Source: an uncultured Methanosarcinales archaeon
GTDB taxonomy: Archaea > Nanobdellota > Nanobdellia > Woesearchaeales > GW2011-AR4
Assembly: GCA_964611745.1 (NCBI GenBank)
Contig: CAZTBE010000004.1
Coordinates: 1-53,322 of the forward strand
Length of the DNA stretch: 53,322 nt
Direction: 5' to 3'
Position 1 is the first letter of the stretch. Each line of letters starts with the position of its first letter. The position numbers were made by a program, and so were the translations under genes. Below the pieces are notes generated by a model. That model searched no databases. It saw nothing but the letters and a program-made list of their open reading frames with translations, and was not told the DNA's origin. Below are positions 8,635 through 46,644 of the stretch, in pieces.

Positions 8635-10098
8635 TTACTTTGTTACTTTACCAGTCAAACTCCTCAACATATGCCCAGTAATCTCCAAATCATAAAATTT
8701 CTTTAACTCTAATCTGCCTTTAACACCAACAACCAGTGGATAAGTTCCAAACTGCCTGCAGAAAGTAGTATTGCCGTCATAAATCTCTGTATAACAATCT
8801 TTAAGCACAACACCTTTTGGAGCAATTCTTTGAAGCATTGGCCAATCAATTTTCTGCCTTATGTCATTTCTCCATTTCCAATAATATTTTCTATTCTTTT
8901 TCAAAAATTTATTCCCGCATTCCTTAAAAAGTGAAGTTCCCTCAAATATTGCAACCTGCCTTATATTAATCCTGCGCAGCATTAAGCCATCATCATAAAT
9001 CTTCTTTAGCCATTTCATATTCTCTTCATGAGTTTTTTTGCTTTCCTCTTTCAACCCAAAAATTAAGTTGATGCCGGGTAAGTATTTAGGCATTCCATTT
9101 TCTCCTCTTTCTGCGCCATACTTATTAAGGATTTTTATAGCCTCATAAGCTATTTTTGGAGAACTGTTCAGCATATTTTCTTTAACAACAACTTCATCAA
9201 AACTCTCAACTCCAAAGGCAGCTATATTTCCAGGAGTACAATATTTAACAATAGCTTTAGTTATTTCATGATTTTTATCTGCAACAACCTTTACTGGATT
9301 TACATTATCTATATGTAAAACTTTTATGTCCTTACATTTTTTTCTAATCTCCTTTAAAAGCCCAATAGCCTCTGGAAAGGTATAGAAACAATTCTGTTTT
9401 CCCAATCTAAAATACCTGCAGCCTAATTTATAAAATTCAATAATTTCTTTCAAAATATCCCCTTTATCCCTGAACTCAACATTGTTTTTTAACGGCTCTA
9501 TACAAAAGCTGCATTTCCCTACATCACATCCATGCCCTGTCTCAATCTCAATCATCCTGTAATCAGGAATCTGTGTAACAATTTTTGCCCCATCGACTGC
9601 ATATTCTTTAACCTCATCATAGGGAAAATTAAACATTTGCTTATTAACATCATCAAAAACATCTAAATCTGCTTTCTCAAAAAACTTACCGCCATGCAAC
9701 TGGGTGCCAAAAACAGCAGGCCCTGTAAGTATTTTTTTGCATTTGAGGTCTTTAATTAATGGTATAAGCTCTTTTAAGGTTCCAGGCATTGCAGAAAGAT
9801 ATTTCCCAGGAACATGAACACCTAAAACAACAATTAAAGTATCAGTTTCTTCCAATATTTTTTTAATATTCTTATAATTGATTGTTAAATTGTATATTTT
9901 TATATTTGTTTTTTGAGACGATTTTGTTTCTTTTAATGTAGAATTATATTTTTTCCATAACCTTAAATCGTCAATTGTCAAATAATTAACATCCTCATTA
10001 AGATAGCCAGCTATATACCTTGGATATGCCCCTAAATAAGGTGGAACTCCTAATCCTGCTGGCTCATCAGTATAGCAGTCTAAAATTGTATATCTCAT
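8635..10098 (-). CDS. Radical SAM protein with an N-terminal Rossmann/B12-like domain
   Basis: The cluster motif GHGCDVGKCSFC has Cx4Cx2C spacing. The start was moved to MRYTILDCYTDEPAGLG (ATG 10098-10096), because the upstream 30 codons of the ORF look like promoter DNA. Confidence 0.7.
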   Translation of the reverse strand: MRYTILDCYTDEPAGLGVPPYLGAYPRYIAGYLNEDVNYLTIDDLRLWKKYNSTLKETKSSQKTNIKIYNLTINYKNIKKILEETDTLIVVLGVHVPGKYLSAMPGTLKELIPLIKDLKCKKILTGPAVFGTQLHGGKFFEKADLDVFDDVNKQMFNFPYDEVKEYAVDGAKIVTQIPDYRMIEIETGHGCDVGKCSFCIEPLKNNVEFRDKGDILKEIIEFYKLGCRYFRLGKQNCFYTFPEAIGLLKEIRKKCKDIKVLHIDNVNPVKVVADKNHEITKAIVKYCTPGNIAAFGVESFDEVVVKENMLNSSPKIAYEAIKILNKYGAERGENGMPKYLPGINLIFGLKEESKKTHEENMKWLKKIYDDGLMLRRINIRQVAIFEGTSLFKECGNKFLKKNRKYYWKWRNDIRQKIDWPMLQRIAPKGVVLKDCYTEIYDGNTTFCRQFGTYPLVVGVKGRLELKKFYDLEITGHMLRSLTGKVTK

Positions 10099-10200
10099 GC
10101 TTAAAAGTAACATTTGCGCTATTAAAAAGGTTTTTATTTGGCTAACATTTACATAAAATACAAAAACATTTATATTACCTAAAATCAAATAAAGATCATT

Positions 10201-10809
10201 ATGGGAGTAGTTTTAATATCAATACTTATAGTATTTTTACTCTTATTCCTATTAAATTTCTATAGAGATCCAAAAAGAAAAATACCTAAAGGCAATAATA
10301 TAGTAAGCCCTGCCGACGGCAAAGTAATCAATATATTAAAAATAGAAAAAGATAAAACAATAGTTAATAAGGGGTTTCTTGGAAAAATACAAACCTTAAC
10401 AAAGGATATAGCAAAAGAATGTTATGTCATTTCAATATTCATGTCGCCTTTTGATGTGCATATAAACAGGGCCCCGATTGATGGAAAAATAGCCTCAATA
10501 AAACACGAAAAAGGAAAATTTTTTGCAGCATTCAACCTCAAAAAATCTTTAATGAATGAAAAAAACGAAATAATAATGAAAAACAGGAATATTGGAAAAA
10601 TAAAAATAATACAGATAGCAGGTTTTCTTGCAAGAAGAATAATTTGCACTGTAAATAAAAATGAAAAACTTAATAAAGGGCAGAGAATTGGAAAAATTGT
10701 ACTGGGTTCGCAAGTTACATTAATATTGCCCTCAAAAAAAGTAAATCTTAAGATTAAGAAAAAACAAAAAGTAACTGCTGGAGAAACAATAATTGCTGGG
10801 TTAAGATGA
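10201..10809 (+). CDS. psd: Phosphatidylserine (archaetidylserine) decarboxylase proenzyme
   Basis: FMSPFDVHINRAPIDGKI is present, together with the C-terminal LGSQVTL self-cleavage-type G-S motif and an N-terminal TM helix. Confidence 0.8.
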   Translation: MGVVLISILIVFLLLFLLNFYRDPKRKIPKGNNIVSPADGKVINILKIEKDKTIVNKGFLGKIQTLTKDIAKECYVISIFMSPFDVHINRAPIDGKIASIKHEKGKFFAAFNLKKSLMNEKNEIIMKNRNIGKIKIIQIAGFLARRIICTVNKNEKLNKGQRIGKIVLGSQVTLILPSKKVNLKIKKKQKVTAGETIIAGLR

Positions 10810-11369
10810 ATTCAAAGTTAATGTTTTTTTCAAATTTCCTTAAAAATCCCACAGAAGTAGCAGCTATCGCTCCAAGTTCGAAATATTTAATAAATAAGAT
10901 AATTAAAAATATTGATTTTAGCAAAACAAAATGTATTGTTGAGTATGGTCCTGGTGTAGGAACTATAACAAAAGCAATATTAGAAAAGCTAAATCAAGAT
11001 GCAAAATTAATTTGCTTTGAATCAAACTCTAAATTTTGCTCATTTCTTAATAAAAACATGAATGACTCAAGATTGGTCGTAATAAATGACACAGCTGAAA
11101 AACTTAATTTCTATCTTGAAAAACTTGATACAGGCAATATTGATTATGTATTATCGGGCATCCCTTTCTCTTTGATTAAAAAAGAAACTAAAAAAGACAT
11201 TATTAAAAAGACAGAGTGTATCCTAAGAGAAAGTGGCAAGTTTATCATATACCAGCAATATAATTGGCATTTAAAAAAATATCTGGATACTTGTTTTAAA
11301 AACATTTCAACAGAAGTAGAGATCAGAAATATACCTCCAACTATGTTATATGTCTGTGAAAAAACATGA
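10806..11369 (+). CDS. Class I SAM-dependent methyltransferase (phospholipid N-methyltransferase-like, COG3963-type)
   Basis: SAM motif I is VEYGPGVGTITKAIL. ATGA start/stop overlaps occur with psd (10806-10809) and with the next gene (11366-11369). Confidence 0.55.
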   Translation: MNSKLMFFSNFLKNPTEVAAIAPSSKYLINKIIKNIDFSKTKCIVEYGPGVGTITKAILEKLNQDAKLICFESNSKFCSFLNKNMNDSRLVVINDTAEKLNFYLEKLDTGNIDYVLSGIPFSLIKKETKKDIIKKTECILRESGKFIIYQQYNWHLKKYLDTCFKNISTEVEIRNIPPTMLYVCEKT

Positions 11370-12400
11370 AAATAAGAATTAAAAAAAGAAGAATCTCAAT
11401 AACCCTAACATTTTTGAGATTATTTCTGGCATTTATATTATTCTTTATTATTATTTCTGGAGAACAGGACATAGCTGTTTTTCTTTTTATCGTAACAGCA
11501 TTCTGGTCTTTCTTTGATCATTTTATATACAAAAAACAGAAATCACAATTAAAATCCATAACAGATTTATTGGCAGATAAATTACTGATAAACCTTACTG
11601 CAATAGCTTTGGTAATAGCAAATTTACTTCCATTCTGGGTTATGTCAGTTTTCCTTGGCAGAGACTTGCTTACAATTATAGGTGGGGCATATTTATTTTA
11701 TAAAGATATCAGAAGAGAATTTGAAGCTACCCTCATAGGCAAGATAACCTTATTCTTCCAAATAATAGCCTTAATTCCCGCAACTCTAGGAGAAATAGAT
11801 TGGGTTTTGATATGGACTGCAACAACTCTAACAATAATTTCAGCAATAGAATTATTCTTTAAATCAGAATTTAGATTGACAAGAAAAACAGACATAAATG
11901 AGTTTAGAATTTCAAAATTACTAAAACTTGCGGATATTTTTACTCTGGTAAATGTTGTTTTTGGATTGCTTGCAATACTTTTTGTAATAAATGAAAACTA
12001 CATTTTTGCAATAAGCTCGCTTTTCTTGGCGGTGATAGCCGATTATGCAGATGGAAAATTAGCAAAAAAACTAAAACAGCAAAACACTTTTGGAAAGGAA
12101 TTAGATTCTTTAGCCGATACGATATCTTTTGGAGTAGCACCTGCAATTTTTGGTTTTTCATTAATCCAGACCCCATTGGCAATAGCATCCTTTACAATTT
12201 TTTTATTTTGTGGTATTTTAAGGCTCGCAAGATACAACATAATGGATACACCAGACAGCTATGAGGGAATGCCTATAACATTAAATGGCATAATAATACC
12301 GGCATTGTTCTTGTTTAAGATGCCTGTAGATTTCTACCCATATATCTATATCCTGTTGGGAATATTGATGGTGTCAAATATAAGGTTCAGAAAAATCTAA
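11366..12400 (+). CDS. CDP-alcohol phosphatidyltransferase, phosphatidylserine-synthase-like, with a degenerate N-terminal repeat
   Basis: The C-terminal half carries DGKLAKKLKQQNTFGKELDSLAD, which fits D-G-x2-A-[RK]-x8-G-x3-D-x3-D. The N-terminal half is a polytopic membrane domain lacking the DG motif. Confidence 0.7.
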   Translation: MKIRIKKRRISITLTFLRLFLAFILFFIIISGEQDIAVFLFIVTAFWSFFDHFIYKKQKSQLKSITDLLADKLLINLTAIALVIANLLPFWVMSVFLGRDLLTIIGGAYLFYKDIRREFEATLIGKITLFFQIIALIPATLGEIDWVLIWTATTLTIISAIELFFKSEFRLTRKTDINEFRISKLLKLADIFTLVNVVFGLLAILFVINENYIFAISSLFLAVIADYADGKLAKKLKQQNTFGKELDSLADTISFGVAPAIFGFSLIQTPLAIASFTIFLFCGILRLARYNIMDTPDSYEGMPITLNGIIIPALFLFKMPVDFYPYIYILLGILMVSNIRFRKI

Positions 12401-13428
12401 ATTCTGGATTTTTTTATAATCAAATGTTTATATACCTCTACAATCATATACAAATAGGTCAGTACAGCAATTAAAACCAATATCTGAGATTTATACACAA
12501 AATCAATAACTATGGCAATTATTGCAACATATGAGATTCCAACAACAACCTTCCCTAAAGCGCTTGAATGTACATCTTTAAATTTTGAAAGATAAGTCGT
12601 TTTTGTAACTAACAGGATAATAGAGGGCACCAAAAATAATATAATCCAAAATGAATTCAGGATGCCAGCTGCGTAAAAAGCAAGGTATGACGATACTATT
12701 AACATAAAATCAGTAAAAGCATCATAAATCCTCCCAAACTTTGTAATTTGTTCTGTTATCCTTGCTGATACCCCATCTAATTTATCCAACAGTACTATGA
12801 TAGCAAAAACCGCCAATGCGAAATTTGACTTTGATTCTATCACATTAATTATGAACAGTGGAATCAGTAGAAGCCTGAATGTCGTTATTATGTTGGGTAT
12901 ATTGAGAATATTTTCTCCCATGAGCTTACCCATTTTTACAAGATAATCTAAGCCGGAAACTACCGTTATTATAACTGCTATGAGCATAAACAACCAATTC
13001 AAAGGTATGCTGAGAATAACTGTCAGTATGGCTATAATCTGCGATACAGTTTTTATTTTTCCAAGTTTACTTGCACCGATGACAACTTTTTTTGGTAGAA
13101 AAAATAGTCTTGCCACTGTAATAATTAATTCTCTGGAAATAATGATAACAGCCATCCATAATTGTATTCTCCCAATTAGGAATATTAATGCTGCAGATAT
13201 TAACAATTTATCTGCGATAGGATCTATTATCTTCCCTATACCGGTAATCTGCTGTTTTTTCCTTGCAATGTATCCATCTAGTGCATCTGATAAAGATAAA
13301 ATTATGAAAATAAATGCAGCAATATAATCCCTGTAAGGTATATCCATCAAAAGAAAAATTACGAACACAGGAATTAGAAGAATCCTGATATAAGTTATCT
13401 GATTTGGAATTGAAAAAACATCTTTCAT
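12397..13428 (-). CDS. Tandem (duplicated) CDP-alcohol phosphatidyltransferase
   Basis: One polypeptide carries two complete motifs, DALDGYIARKKQQITGIGKIIDPIADK and DKLDGVSARITEQITKFGRIYDAFTD. Confidence 0.8.
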   Translation of the reverse strand: MKDVFSIPNQITYIRILLIPVFVIFLLMDIPYRDYIAAFIFIILSLSDALDGYIARKKQQITGIGKIIDPIADKLLISAALIFLIGRIQLWMAVIIISRELIITVARLFFLPKKVVIGASKLGKIKTVSQIIAILTVILSIPLNWLFMLIAVIITVVSGLDYLVKMGKLMGENILNIPNIITTFRLLLIPLFIINVIESKSNFALAVFAIIVLLDKLDGVSARITEQITKFGRIYDAFTDFMLIVSSYLAFYAAGILNSFWIILFLVPSIILLVTKTTYLSKFKDVHSSALGKVVVGISYVAIIAIVIDFVYKSQILVLIAVLTYLYMIVEVYKHLIIKKSRI

Positions 13429-13488
13429 TTTTCTGTGAATTAATCAAAATAACAATTTTTATAATCCTTATATAATTTTCTATTTACC

Positions 13489-13632
13489 CCAGGTTGGTGC
13501 GAAAGTCGGTGCTTGTGCGTAATTTGCCAATTCTTATAGCTCCGCAGGATTGTGCTGTTCGACCTGAGCGAAGCGAAGTTGAGAGGAATGCTAAGGCTTC
13601 GCACAAGCACGAATTAGATTTTTGCACCAACC
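13489..13632. mobile_element. MITE-like GC-rich palindromic insertion (element A)
   Basis: The terminal inverted repeat GGTTGGTGC (13492-13500) pairs with GCACCAACC (13624-13632). An inner perfect 11-bp stem pairs 13509-13519 with 13600-13610. The direct repeat TCTATTTACC flanks the element at 13479-13488 and 13633-13642. Confidence 0.5.
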
Positions 13633-13661
13633 TCTATTTACCAGTTTATTTAAAGGATGCT

Positions 13662-14222
13662 TTAAATCCTCACATCCCTTAGAGAATAAACTAGTTTCAT
13701 CAAATCCGATGTTTGTTTTTCAATATTCTTAGAGCCCTTTTTTAAATAAATAAGTTTCCCTATATTTAATGTTGTTGTAAAAGGAATGTACGATGATTTT
13801 ATACCTACCGGGAGGATGGGGATTTTTGTTTCTATTGCCAGCCTGACAAATCCGGTTTTAAAATTTTTGGCTAGCATTTTTTTATAATTTCCCTCTGGAA
13901 AAATACCTATAATTTTATTATTTAGAAGATATTTTTTAATTTCATTATATGCCTGCTTTGAATTAAATAAAGGAATACAACCAGCCCACTGCCTGCAAAC
14001 CATATCCCCTAAAAACCACCAAGTGGGTTCTGCAATAAAATGTATCTTTTTATTTAGTTTCTTTATCATTATGTAAAGTATATAAAATGGGTCTATAAGT
14101 CTTTCATGATTTGAAACTACTATGAATGGAGGTTTACTCGGAACATTTCCTATGCCCCTGATCCTTTTTGTTAAGATACAACAGATAGGATAAATCCAAA
14201 TTTTAGATATGGGATAAACCAT
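13662..14222 (-). CDS. PlsC-like lysophospholipid/glycerol-phosphate acyltransferase
   Basis: The HX4D motif is present (NHERLID), and so is the FPEG motif (GIFPEGNY). Confidence 0.7.
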   Translation of the reverse strand: MVYPISKIWIYPICCILTKRIRGIGNVPSKPPFIVVSNHERLIDPFYILYIMIKKLNKKIHFIAEPTWWFLGDMVCRQWAGCIPLFNSKQAYNEIKKYLLNNKIIGIFPEGNYKKMLAKNFKTGFVRLAIETKIPILPVGIKSSYIPFTTTLNIGKLIYLKKGSKNIEKQTSDLMKLVYSLRDVRI

Positions 14223-28301: not shown

Positions 28302-28341
28302 ATTAAATTACAATATTAAGAAGTTTAAAAATATGTCGAAA

Positions 28342-28620
28342 TGTACGTTCCCGATTTTACGTTGCCGTAAAACACTGTGGGGTGCTTTGCACCCCACTAC
28401 TAGTGTTCAGTTGTACGTTCCCGTACAACAGTATGCAATGCTTTGCATTGCACGATCCAAGACGGATTAGTACGTGTGGTACGAAGTACCACACACTGGT
28501 GTGCAGGAATGCACAACAGTGTATAGGGATGCTTTCAGCATCCCGAGACTGAGCATTCAAAAGAGTCCCGTTTCGGGACGTCGCAGACGTCCCCAGACGC
28601 TGTTTTACGGGCACGTAAAA
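28342..28620. repeat. Array of ten perfect GC-rich stem-loops (unclassified)
   Basis: Hairpins lie at 28355-28372, 28377-28397, 28411-28428, 28434-28452, 28474-28494, 28500-28515, 28526-28544, 28565-28579, 28575-28593 and 28603-28620. The 12-mer TGTACGTTCCCG is repeated at 28342 and 28412. Confidence 0.6.
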
Positions 28621-28657
28621 CAATAGATTTATTAATAATAAACTCAAGAATATACTT

Positions 28658-29365: not shown

Positions 29366-29447
29366 CTCAGTCTCGGGATACCGTAGGTATCCCAATACGC
29401 TGTTTTACGGGCACGTAAAAAAATAAAAAAATCCCTCTTGCGAGGGA
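29366..29447. repeat. Hairpin modules downstream of the nitroreductase, sharing sequence with the upstream array
   Basis: CTCAGTCTC plus GGGATACC-GTA-GGTATCCC lies at 29366-29393. ACGCTGTTTTACGGGCACGTAAAA at 29397-29420 is identical to 28597-28620. TCCCTC-TTGC-GAGGGA lies at 29432-29447. Confidence 0.55.
29421..29447 (-). terminator. Hairpin plus T-tract (minus-strand sense), candidate distal ftsZ terminator
   Basis: The minus strand reads TCCCTCGCAAGAGGGA followed by TTTTTTTATTTTTTT. Confidence 0.45.
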
Positions 29448-33150: not shown

Positions 33151-33242
33151 AGCCCCGTAGTCTAGCGGTCAAGGATGTCGGCTTTTGGAGCCGATGGCCC
33201 AGGTTCGAATTGCAACTAACAACGAAAGTCCTGGCGGGGCTA
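33151..33242 (+). tRNA. tRNA-Gln (anticodon UUG) with a 19-nt non-canonical intron in the T-loop region
   Basis: The acceptor stem pairs AGCCCCG with CGGGGCT. The D-arm is GTCT/GGAT with an AGCGGTCAA loop. The anticodon stem pairs TCGGC with GCCGA, and the loop TTTTGGA gives the anticodon at 33185-33187. The T-stem pairs CCAGG (33199-33203) with CCTGG (33230-33234), and the T-loop is TTCGAAT. The insert at 33211-33229 can form a BHB-like motif. A T-tract follows the gene. Confidence 0.8.
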
Positions 33243-46414: not shown

Positions 46415-46437
46415 GCATTATTATTGATTTTCTTATG

Positions 46438-46599
46438 GGCTCTGTCCTAAATGAAGGTTGCCATCAATTTGTGAGCACCTTTTTGCTAAACATTGAGCTG
46501 ACAAGAGGGATGGCTCCTACGGAGAATGTCAGCCTTAACTTGCAATATTAAGTGCGAACCGATGGCAACCCAAGCGTTAGCGAGATTTAGGACAGAGCC
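46438..46599. mobile_element. MITE-like GC-rich palindromic insertion (element B)
   Basis: Perfect 15-bp terminal inverted repeats pair GGCTCTGTCCTAAAT (46438-46452) with ATTTAGGACAGAGCC (46585-46599). A second perfect 10-bp stem pairs 46456-46465 with 46561-46570. Identical 9-bp flanks TTTCTTATG lie at 46429-46437 and 46600-46608. Confidence 0.65.
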
Positions 46600-46644
46600 T
46601 TTCTTATGGTAAAATTTTAATATTAGTCTTGTATTTTATTGGCA

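Follow-up and report, generated by a model that had tools for sequence, protein, structure and literature searches.

Several described elements combine a small size with a rod-like hairpin and an intergenic position, as do ERIC/IRU, Correia/NEMIS, the Rickettsia palindromic elements and the Sulfolobus SM1-SM4 MITEs, all 80-190 bp in length. With the Sulfolobus SM elements, IS-driven MITEs are also documented for archaea. MITEs with long hairpins are often co-transcribed with their neighbours and can change mRNA stability. According to ISfinder, ISAba12 is an IS5-family element of the IS903 group, and a 9-bp duplication fits several DDE families. In Acinetobacter, MITEAba12 is a 113 bp non-coding element with terminal repeats of ~16 bp and a 9-bp duplication; it occurs in many copies at AT-rich intergenic targets, and some of its duplications have decayed (PMC6382973). 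As for DPANN archaea, their genomes are tiny and known almost only via metagenomes, so their mobile DNA has barely been described; a recent survey places a Woesearchaeal genome among the most MITE-dense archaeal genomes (PMC11602168).

Here we examined a stretch of 53,322 nucleotides, referred to as the window, whose host is, judging from the relatives of its acyltransferase, a marine Woesearchaeota/Nanoarchaeota-type (DPANN) archaeon. Between a minus-strand gene with two CDP-alcohol phosphatidyltransferase domains (12397-13428) and a minus-strand gene for a PlsC-like acyltransferase (13662-14222, Pfam Acyltransferase) lies a 233 bp spacer, in which we identified a 145-bp non-coding MITE-like insertion, element A (13490-13634, plus strand, written in the orientation of the family consensus). 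It is found once in the 53-kb window and has a GC content of 0.49, against 0.33 (32.9%) for the window. The gene callers placed no gene in this spacer on nine contigs, despite a stop-free frame. As the initial annotation had proposed, element A is inserted DNA bounded by terminal inverted repeats and flanked by a target duplication, and homologues at non-orthologous sites bear this out. With a probability of about 0.85, we consider it a copy of a previously undescribed MITE family which makes a 9-bp target duplication and is moved in trans by a putative DDE transposase. Element A resembles MITEAba12 in being short and non-coding (145 versus 113 bp), in the length class of its terminal repeats, in its 9-bp duplication, in its AT-rich intergenic target and in belonging to a family of many copies, some of them with decayed duplications. 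On the other hand, MITEAba12 has a proteobacterial host and a parent, ISAba12, whereas element A resides in a DPANN archaeon, no parent was found for it in the retrieved loci, its ends differ in sequence, and it is GC-rich in an AT-rich genome with conserved interior blocks. The long-hairpin MITEs named above have the same rod-like design with unrelated sequences, and their duplication lengths may differ. As a kind of MITE the element is ordinary; what makes it interesting is its host, its GC-rich core, which is conserved, and the occurrence of the same ends in a second archaeal lineage.

The ends of element A were set by alignment with 13 homologous sequences together with the best register of the flank duplication, and the profile match of the element to the family reached an nhmmer E-value of 1.8e-45. 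The left terminal inverted repeat (13490-13507, plus strand) reads CAGGTTGGTGCGAAAGTC, with the family consensus GAGGTTGGTGCGAAAGTC, and pairs with the right one (13617-13634, plus strand, GATTTTTGCACCAACCTC), which differs from it at two positions that equal G-U pairs on the plus strand. Across 14 sequences the left repeat is nearly invariant, with a mean column entropy of 0.04 bit. Over 12 insertions the end consensus is G-AGGTTGGTGCGAAAGTC...CCAACCT-C, and the first base of element A is a C where the family has a G. The outer repeat is 17 bp long (AGGTTGGTGCGAAAGTC / GATTTTTGCACCAACCT, 88% complementary) and exceeds the 9 bp previously noted, a stem of GGTTGGTGC (13492-13500) and GCACCAACC (13624-13632) which does pair at these positions. 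The perfect 11-bp inner stem also held: its left arm, a subterminal inverted repeat, is GTGCTTGTGCG (13509-13519, plus strand) and its right arm CGCACAAGCAC (13600-13610, plus strand), and in the copies L039 and L063 it shows one compensatory change from G-C to A-U. In a structure prediction, as suggested in the initial annotation, element A folds far better than chance both as RNA (-60.7 kcal/mol, z = -5.9 for the plus strand; -48.9 kcal/mol, z = -3.3 for the minus strand) and as DNA (-29.6 kcal/mol, z = -4.6).

The initial annotation had also pointed to a 10-mer, TCTATTTACC, as the flanking direct repeat. Both copies are present (13479-13488 and 13633-13642), and they are the only two in the window, where ~0.16 would be expected; none of 100 shuffles gave two. 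The duplication itself, however, is 9 bp long and not 10. Its left copy is TATTTACCC (13481-13489) and its right copy TATTTACCA (13635-13643), with 8/9 positions matching, and the right copy overlaps the 10-mer by eight bases. Since the ends are fixed by 11 homologous insertions, T13633 and C13634 belong to element A and not to the duplication; the 10-mer is the true 9-bp duplication shifted by two and lengthened because the two terminal bases of the element happen to match. Perfect 9-bp duplications, on which the register rests, surround three other copies: GCAGTAATA (L017), AGTGAAAGA (L071) and CTTATATCT (L075). Summed over 12 insertions, 66/108 flank positions matched, in a register that was the best of 49 combinations tried, against a mean of 33.3 (sd 4.3, maximum 44) for controls at fifty offsets. 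The flanking repeat is therefore not the chance AT-rich match that had been considered, as 9-bp repeats recur around other copies.

Homologues were retrieved in two scans. A search of one genome per species with the pattern AGGTTGGTGC, 105-135 nt, GCACCAACCT returned 30 loci which fell into four groups. In the first were homologues of element A on three contigs of the MAG 'archaeon ARS102' (L017, L039 and L042) and one in another archaeal MAG (L034, 93% identical to element A), while the second was a separate family of 150-153 bp in one Nitrosopumilus MAG (L035 and L043). The third group comprised gammaproteobacterial palindromic repeats of the GTAG type, with the 10-mer alone in common with element A, and the fourth low-complexity or chance matches. 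In Aeromonas, Legionella, Cellvibrio and other gammaproteobacteria (L018, L019, L023-L025, L028-L033, L038, L040 and L046) we observed paired inverted repeats, GTAGGTTGGTGCTGAGCGCAGCGAAGCCCAACA, which have no flank duplication and are REP/REPIN-like; that they have the 10-mer AGGTTGGTGC and a GCGAAGC motif in common with element A is probably coincidence. As the five homologues had invariant interior blocks, a metagenome collection was then scanned with a family-specific pattern, GAGGTTGGTGCGAAA ... CCTGAGC ... GCGAAG, which gave 14 loci; element A itself was missed by this pattern because it starts with C.

After repeats of the same place had been merged, 12 distinct insertions remained, including element A. 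The other 11 are 60-93% identical to it and reside in AT-rich marine archaeal contigs, and their flanks show no similarity to one another or to the surroundings of element A. As to the criteria by which a MITE is recognised, the insertions are small and non-coding (145-187 bp), their 18-bp terminal inverted repeats are near-invariant in 14 sequences, the target-site duplication has a fixed length of 9 bp, and a single genome can hold several copies at unrelated sites, with at least four in the MAG ARS102 (on three contigs, together with a decayed copy) and two, L065 and L068, on the same 31-kb contig. Their GC content is 0.45-0.53, compared with 0.32-0.40 for the loci. All copies are intergenic and adjoin housekeeping genes, in either orientation, with undecaprenyl-diphosphate synthase, tRNA-guanine transglycosylase and GyrB among the neighbours. 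A profile search of all retrieved sequence added a 59-nt fragment in L076 and the decayed copy (L042:7382-7516), which sits 5.7 kb from the L042 copy; both of its terminal repeats are eroded or replaced, and it keeps the inner stem (as an A-T variant), the CUGAGC-hairpin-GCGAAGUUGAGA core and CUAAGGCC. Further copies, for which the initial annotation had advised a genome-wide search, thus exist at unrelated intergenic sites on other archaeal contigs. The same annotation had reasoned that the element at an orthologous place in relatives would indicate a conserved ncRNA; the homologues were found at non-orthologous sites instead, and 11 insertions at unrelated places rule out a single-copy RNA gene.

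A full-text search of the literature, covering the end sequence as well as DPANN and Nitrosopumilus MITEs, turned up no description of the family. A blastn search of the PLSDB plasmids with element A gave no match, and the family pattern had 0 matches in viral contigs. The 17-mer end matched viral contigs 16 times, in each case in unrelated phage coding sequence.

We compared the host locus among close and more distant relatives. An identical acyltransferase was found on nine marine metagenome contigs (TARA, JGI and NCBI), the spacers of which are 100% identical to the window, and a 99% variant also carries element A; in total, ten contigs of the host species carry an identical element A over the spans compared, and none of them offered a true empty site at high identity. 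The next relatives of the acyltransferase are at most 68% identical and are labelled Candidatus Woesearchaeota or Nanoarchaeota in their sources. In one of them (L014, acyltransferase 62% identical) this gene pair is separated by only 54 bp, with no GC island, compared with 233 bp here. In the comparison with an empty site that had been proposed, element A is thus absent from the equivalent spacer of a 62% relative and present in all ten close contigs. For the L065 insertion, the intergenic DNA in the orthologous region of the window was too diverged for such a comparison. The surrounding region (8635-14222) of this DPANN genome groups genes for phospholipid synthesis, which encode a radical-SAM enzyme, a phosphatidylserine decarboxylase, a methyltransferase, a PlsC-like acyltransferase of the bacterial type and, on opposite strands, two CDP-alcohol phosphatidyltransferases that differ from each other and have two domains each. 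The arrangement is conserved in Woesearchaeal relatives.

The window holds a second MITE-like element, element B (46438-46599, 162 bp). Its terminal repeat, GGCTCTGTCCTAAAT, is perfect over 15 bp, and its 9-bp target-site duplication, TTTCTTATG, is identical on the left (46429-46437) and the right (46600-46608). Element B folds with -65.5 kcal/mol (z = -5.4). The observation that elements A and B have the same layout and unrelated sequences was therefore confirmed. No further copies of element B were detected in the retrieved sequences, and six single matches of its end in viral contigs were assumed to be chance. The equal duplication length of elements A and B suggests related enzymes, although their ends differ in sequence.

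The mobilising enzyme is possibly of the IS5/IS903 type, a best guess from the 9-bp duplication and the resemblance of the ends. IS5 itself duplicates 4 bp. Elements A and B both have the 9-bp duplication expected of the IS903-like group of the IS5 family. The end of element A and the ends of E. coli IS5 (MG1655; GGAAGGTGCGAATAAG / GGAAGGTGCGAACAAG) have the octamer GGTGCGAA in common, which lies almost as far from the tip as it does in GAGGTTGGTGCGAAAGTC, and agree at 10/16 positions, a short match. In the same way the end of element B, GGCTCTGTCCTAAAT, resembles those of ISAba12 (GGCTTTGTTGCACAAA) and IS903 (GGCTTTGTTGAATAAATC) through the common GGCT.TGT...TAAAT, again a short match. Approximate matching of the ends in all retrieved loci yielded MITEs alone and no autonomous partner; tblastn with IS5 InsH over the ~0.6 Mb of retrieved loci gave no match, and Pfam detected no transposase domain in the genes adjoining the Nitrosopumilus copies.

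In the mechanism that we propose, a DDE-type transposase presumably encoded elsewhere would bind the terminal repeats GAGGTTGGTGCGAAAGTC, excise or copy the element and insert it at a site where the two strands are cut 9 nt apart; repair of these staggered ends would leave the 9-bp direct repeat. On this view element A landed in the AT-rich spacer between the genes for the PlsC-like acyltransferase and the tandem CDP-alcohol phosphatidyltransferase, and it is now fixed in the host population. Co-transcription, if any, would place a strong hairpin in the operon mRNA, between two genes of a lipid-synthesis cluster, with a presumed effect on the operon.

The initial annotation had suggested a mobilisation mechanism that recognises structure rather than sequence, and here the data point the other way. 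The terminal sequence is the most invariant part of the family, and the MITE-like family of the Nitrosopumilus MAG, 153 bp long with an AT-rich interior unrelated to element A, has the terminal 12 bp, GAGGTTGGTGCG, in common with it. Three Nitrosopumilus copies were seen (L035:6467-6619, L043:1440-1591 and L043:532-620). The last of them is truncated and only 0.8 kb away from the second; one of the copies is flanked by a perfect 9-bp duplication, GGTACAACC. The A-type end pair can be written as GAGGTTGGTGCG...CGCACCAACCTC. Given the invariant ends (0.04 bit per column) and the 12 bp and 9-bp duplication that Nitrosopumilus shares, recognition looks sequence-based, and for the rod shape of the outer 30 bp the inverted repeats are explanation enough. 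From these ends, it looks as if a sequence-specific transposase clade acts on different passengers.

Inside the stems, the conserved core (13560-13584, plus strand) reads CGACCTGAGC-GAA-GCGAAGTTGAGA. The two core blocks have a column entropy of 0.06-0.07 bit, as against 0.9 bit for the hairpin; this conservation is in part imposed, since the pattern of the second scan required CCTGAGC and GCGAAG. The apex in element A is a 7-nt hairpin, GCGAAGC (13568-13574), which as DNA, d(GCGAAGC), forms a mini-hairpin of exceptional stability; L034 has the same apex and L075 has GCGGAGC, while in most other copies a covarying apical hairpin of 4-5 bp is inserted. A further block, TAAGGC (13592-13597, plus strand), is invariant in 14/14 sequences and was in no search pattern, and its GGC pairs with GCC at 13526-13528. 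In the consensus fold, the terminal repeats form one outer stem and the subterminal repeats another; further inside are a 3-bp GCC/GGC helix, a small UCC-NNN-GGA hairpin, a helix CGAC-C-UGAGC / GCGAAGUUG with tandem G·A and the apical hairpin. Five complementary sequences occur in the apical stem (AACGC, AACAT, AAGAC, AATAC and ATAC), which amount to compensatory changes at three pairs. In the alignment of these closely related family sequences, 95.9% of the cells assigned to pairs are paired, against 29-40% when the partners are slid.

This interior raises the question of whether the core, with GTAAWTT, CGACCUGAGC-hairpin-GCGAAGUUGAGA (tandem G·A) and UAAGGC, is a functional structured RNA or a single-stranded-DNA module riding on the MITE. 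If an RNA, it could be regulatory, protein-binding or catalytic, with the terminal repeats as vehicle and the GC-rich core as the selected part. We regard this as unlikely, though worth more consideration than the other alternatives discussed below. The plus strand folds better than the minus strand (-60.7 against -48.9 kcal/mol), and the consensus strand has 32 G-U cells where the opposite strand has 13, but most of that excess comes from two fixed positions. The compensatory changes at three hairpin pairs and at one inner-stem pair would fit a selected RNA; the covariation is nevertheless limited to one short palindrome, and palindromes may likewise stay perfect through DNA repair templated by the hairpin. 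The unpaired GTAAWTT, TTGAGA and TAAGGC are invariant while the neighbouring segments have ~1 bit of entropy, and L042:7382-7516, a single case, has lost the ends and kept the core; against this, the search pattern contributed to the core conservation, and an AT-rich interior does not keep the Nitrosopumilus family from transposing. The copies are oriented at random with respect to genes, so there is no shared promoter context. At the gathering score, no Rfam family was matched anywhere in the window, and a local Rfam search at E <= 10 gave as its sole weak match mir-548 (E = 0.044), which stems from the terminal repeat. By eye, the core is no hammerhead, as CUGA...GAA comes without the hammerhead nGA and three-way junction, and no kink-turn, as the tandem G·A comes without a 3-nt bulge. 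The interior does not behave like neutral filler, and the simple MITE model covers its near-invariant blocks and covarying hairpin, as well as the decayed copy that keeps its core, only on the condition that transposition requires the blocks.

The mir-548 match leads to a different family of transposons, since element A could be a Tc1/mariner (IS630-superfamily) MITE, analogous to human Made1, the source of mir-548, which derives from Hsmar1. Both are palindromic MITEs with nearly identical terminal 16 nt: the end of element A, AGGTTGGTGCGAAAGT, agrees with that of Hsmar1, AGGTTGGTGCAAAAGT, at 15/16 positions (Hsmar1 sequence from PMC5714172), and this likeness accounts for the weak mir-548/Made1 match, whose E-value of 0.044 is marginal. 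Mariner elements, however, duplicate a TA dinucleotide (PMC5714172), whereas the duplication in the present family is 9 bp long and its ends are not flanked by TA, so that membership fails; Made1/Hsmar1 also differs in its eukaryotic host. The likeness is probably a coincidence of short sequence, and we consider a mariner origin very improbable. Even less credit can be given to a REP/REPIN-type repeat moved by a RAYT (IS200/IS605-like), or to a chance hairpin or terminator. Many of the gammaproteobacterial repeats from the first scan start with GTAGGTTGGTGC and have GCGAAGC-like motifs, and element A lies 27 nt past a stop codon. Those bacterial repeats, though, have only 10 nt in common with element A and no flank duplication, while the ends of the A family are GAGG, not GTAG, and are flanked by 9-bp duplications; REP elements are not known to make target duplications. 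Chance is excluded by the shuffles and by the existence of the family. Both the 9-bp duplications and the conserved family of 145-156 bp contradict this third reading.

For the annotation of DPANN genomes, the family provides a well-bounded MITE, with ends, 9-bp duplication and consensus. The consensus helps to avoid taking GC islands for RNA genes, and the ends can be used in the hunt for the matching transposase. As a Nitrosopumilus element has the same terminal 12 bp, the family is also useful for tracing exchange between marine archaeal lineages. If the core were a functional module, it would be a mobile regulatory, protein-binding or catalytic element that spreads through reduced DPANN genomes and that selection preserves even where the ends of the transposon have decayed.

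Other features were observed elsewhere in the window. At 28340-28625 there is a GC-rich array of ~285 bp with about nine short perfect hairpins, many of them with loops of the GCUUUGC type; it is closed by a 20-nt inverted repeat, folds with -132 kcal/mol (z = -10.4) and matches no Rfam family. Its last 36 nt recur with 92% identity at 29390-29425 (repeat region 29366-29425), just past the next gene, and hairpins therefore lie on both sides of that gene. ARAGORN reported no tRNA in the window. A tRNA-Gln(UUG) is nevertheless present at 33151-33242 (plus strand), with a 19-nt insert (~33211-33229) in the T-loop/T-stem region, and was missed by ARAGORN and Rfam; with the 19 nt taken out, ARAGORN does call tRNA-Gln(ttg). 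The insert occupies a non-canonical intron position, of a type described in some archaea. On the minus strand, a small ORF of ~65-70 codons (~2082-2300), which is below the 80-aa filter, lies upstream of the gene at 1380-2081 and is well conserved with L065. The same long spacer contains an inverted repeat, CCACCAAT...ATTGGTGG, at 2507-2599.
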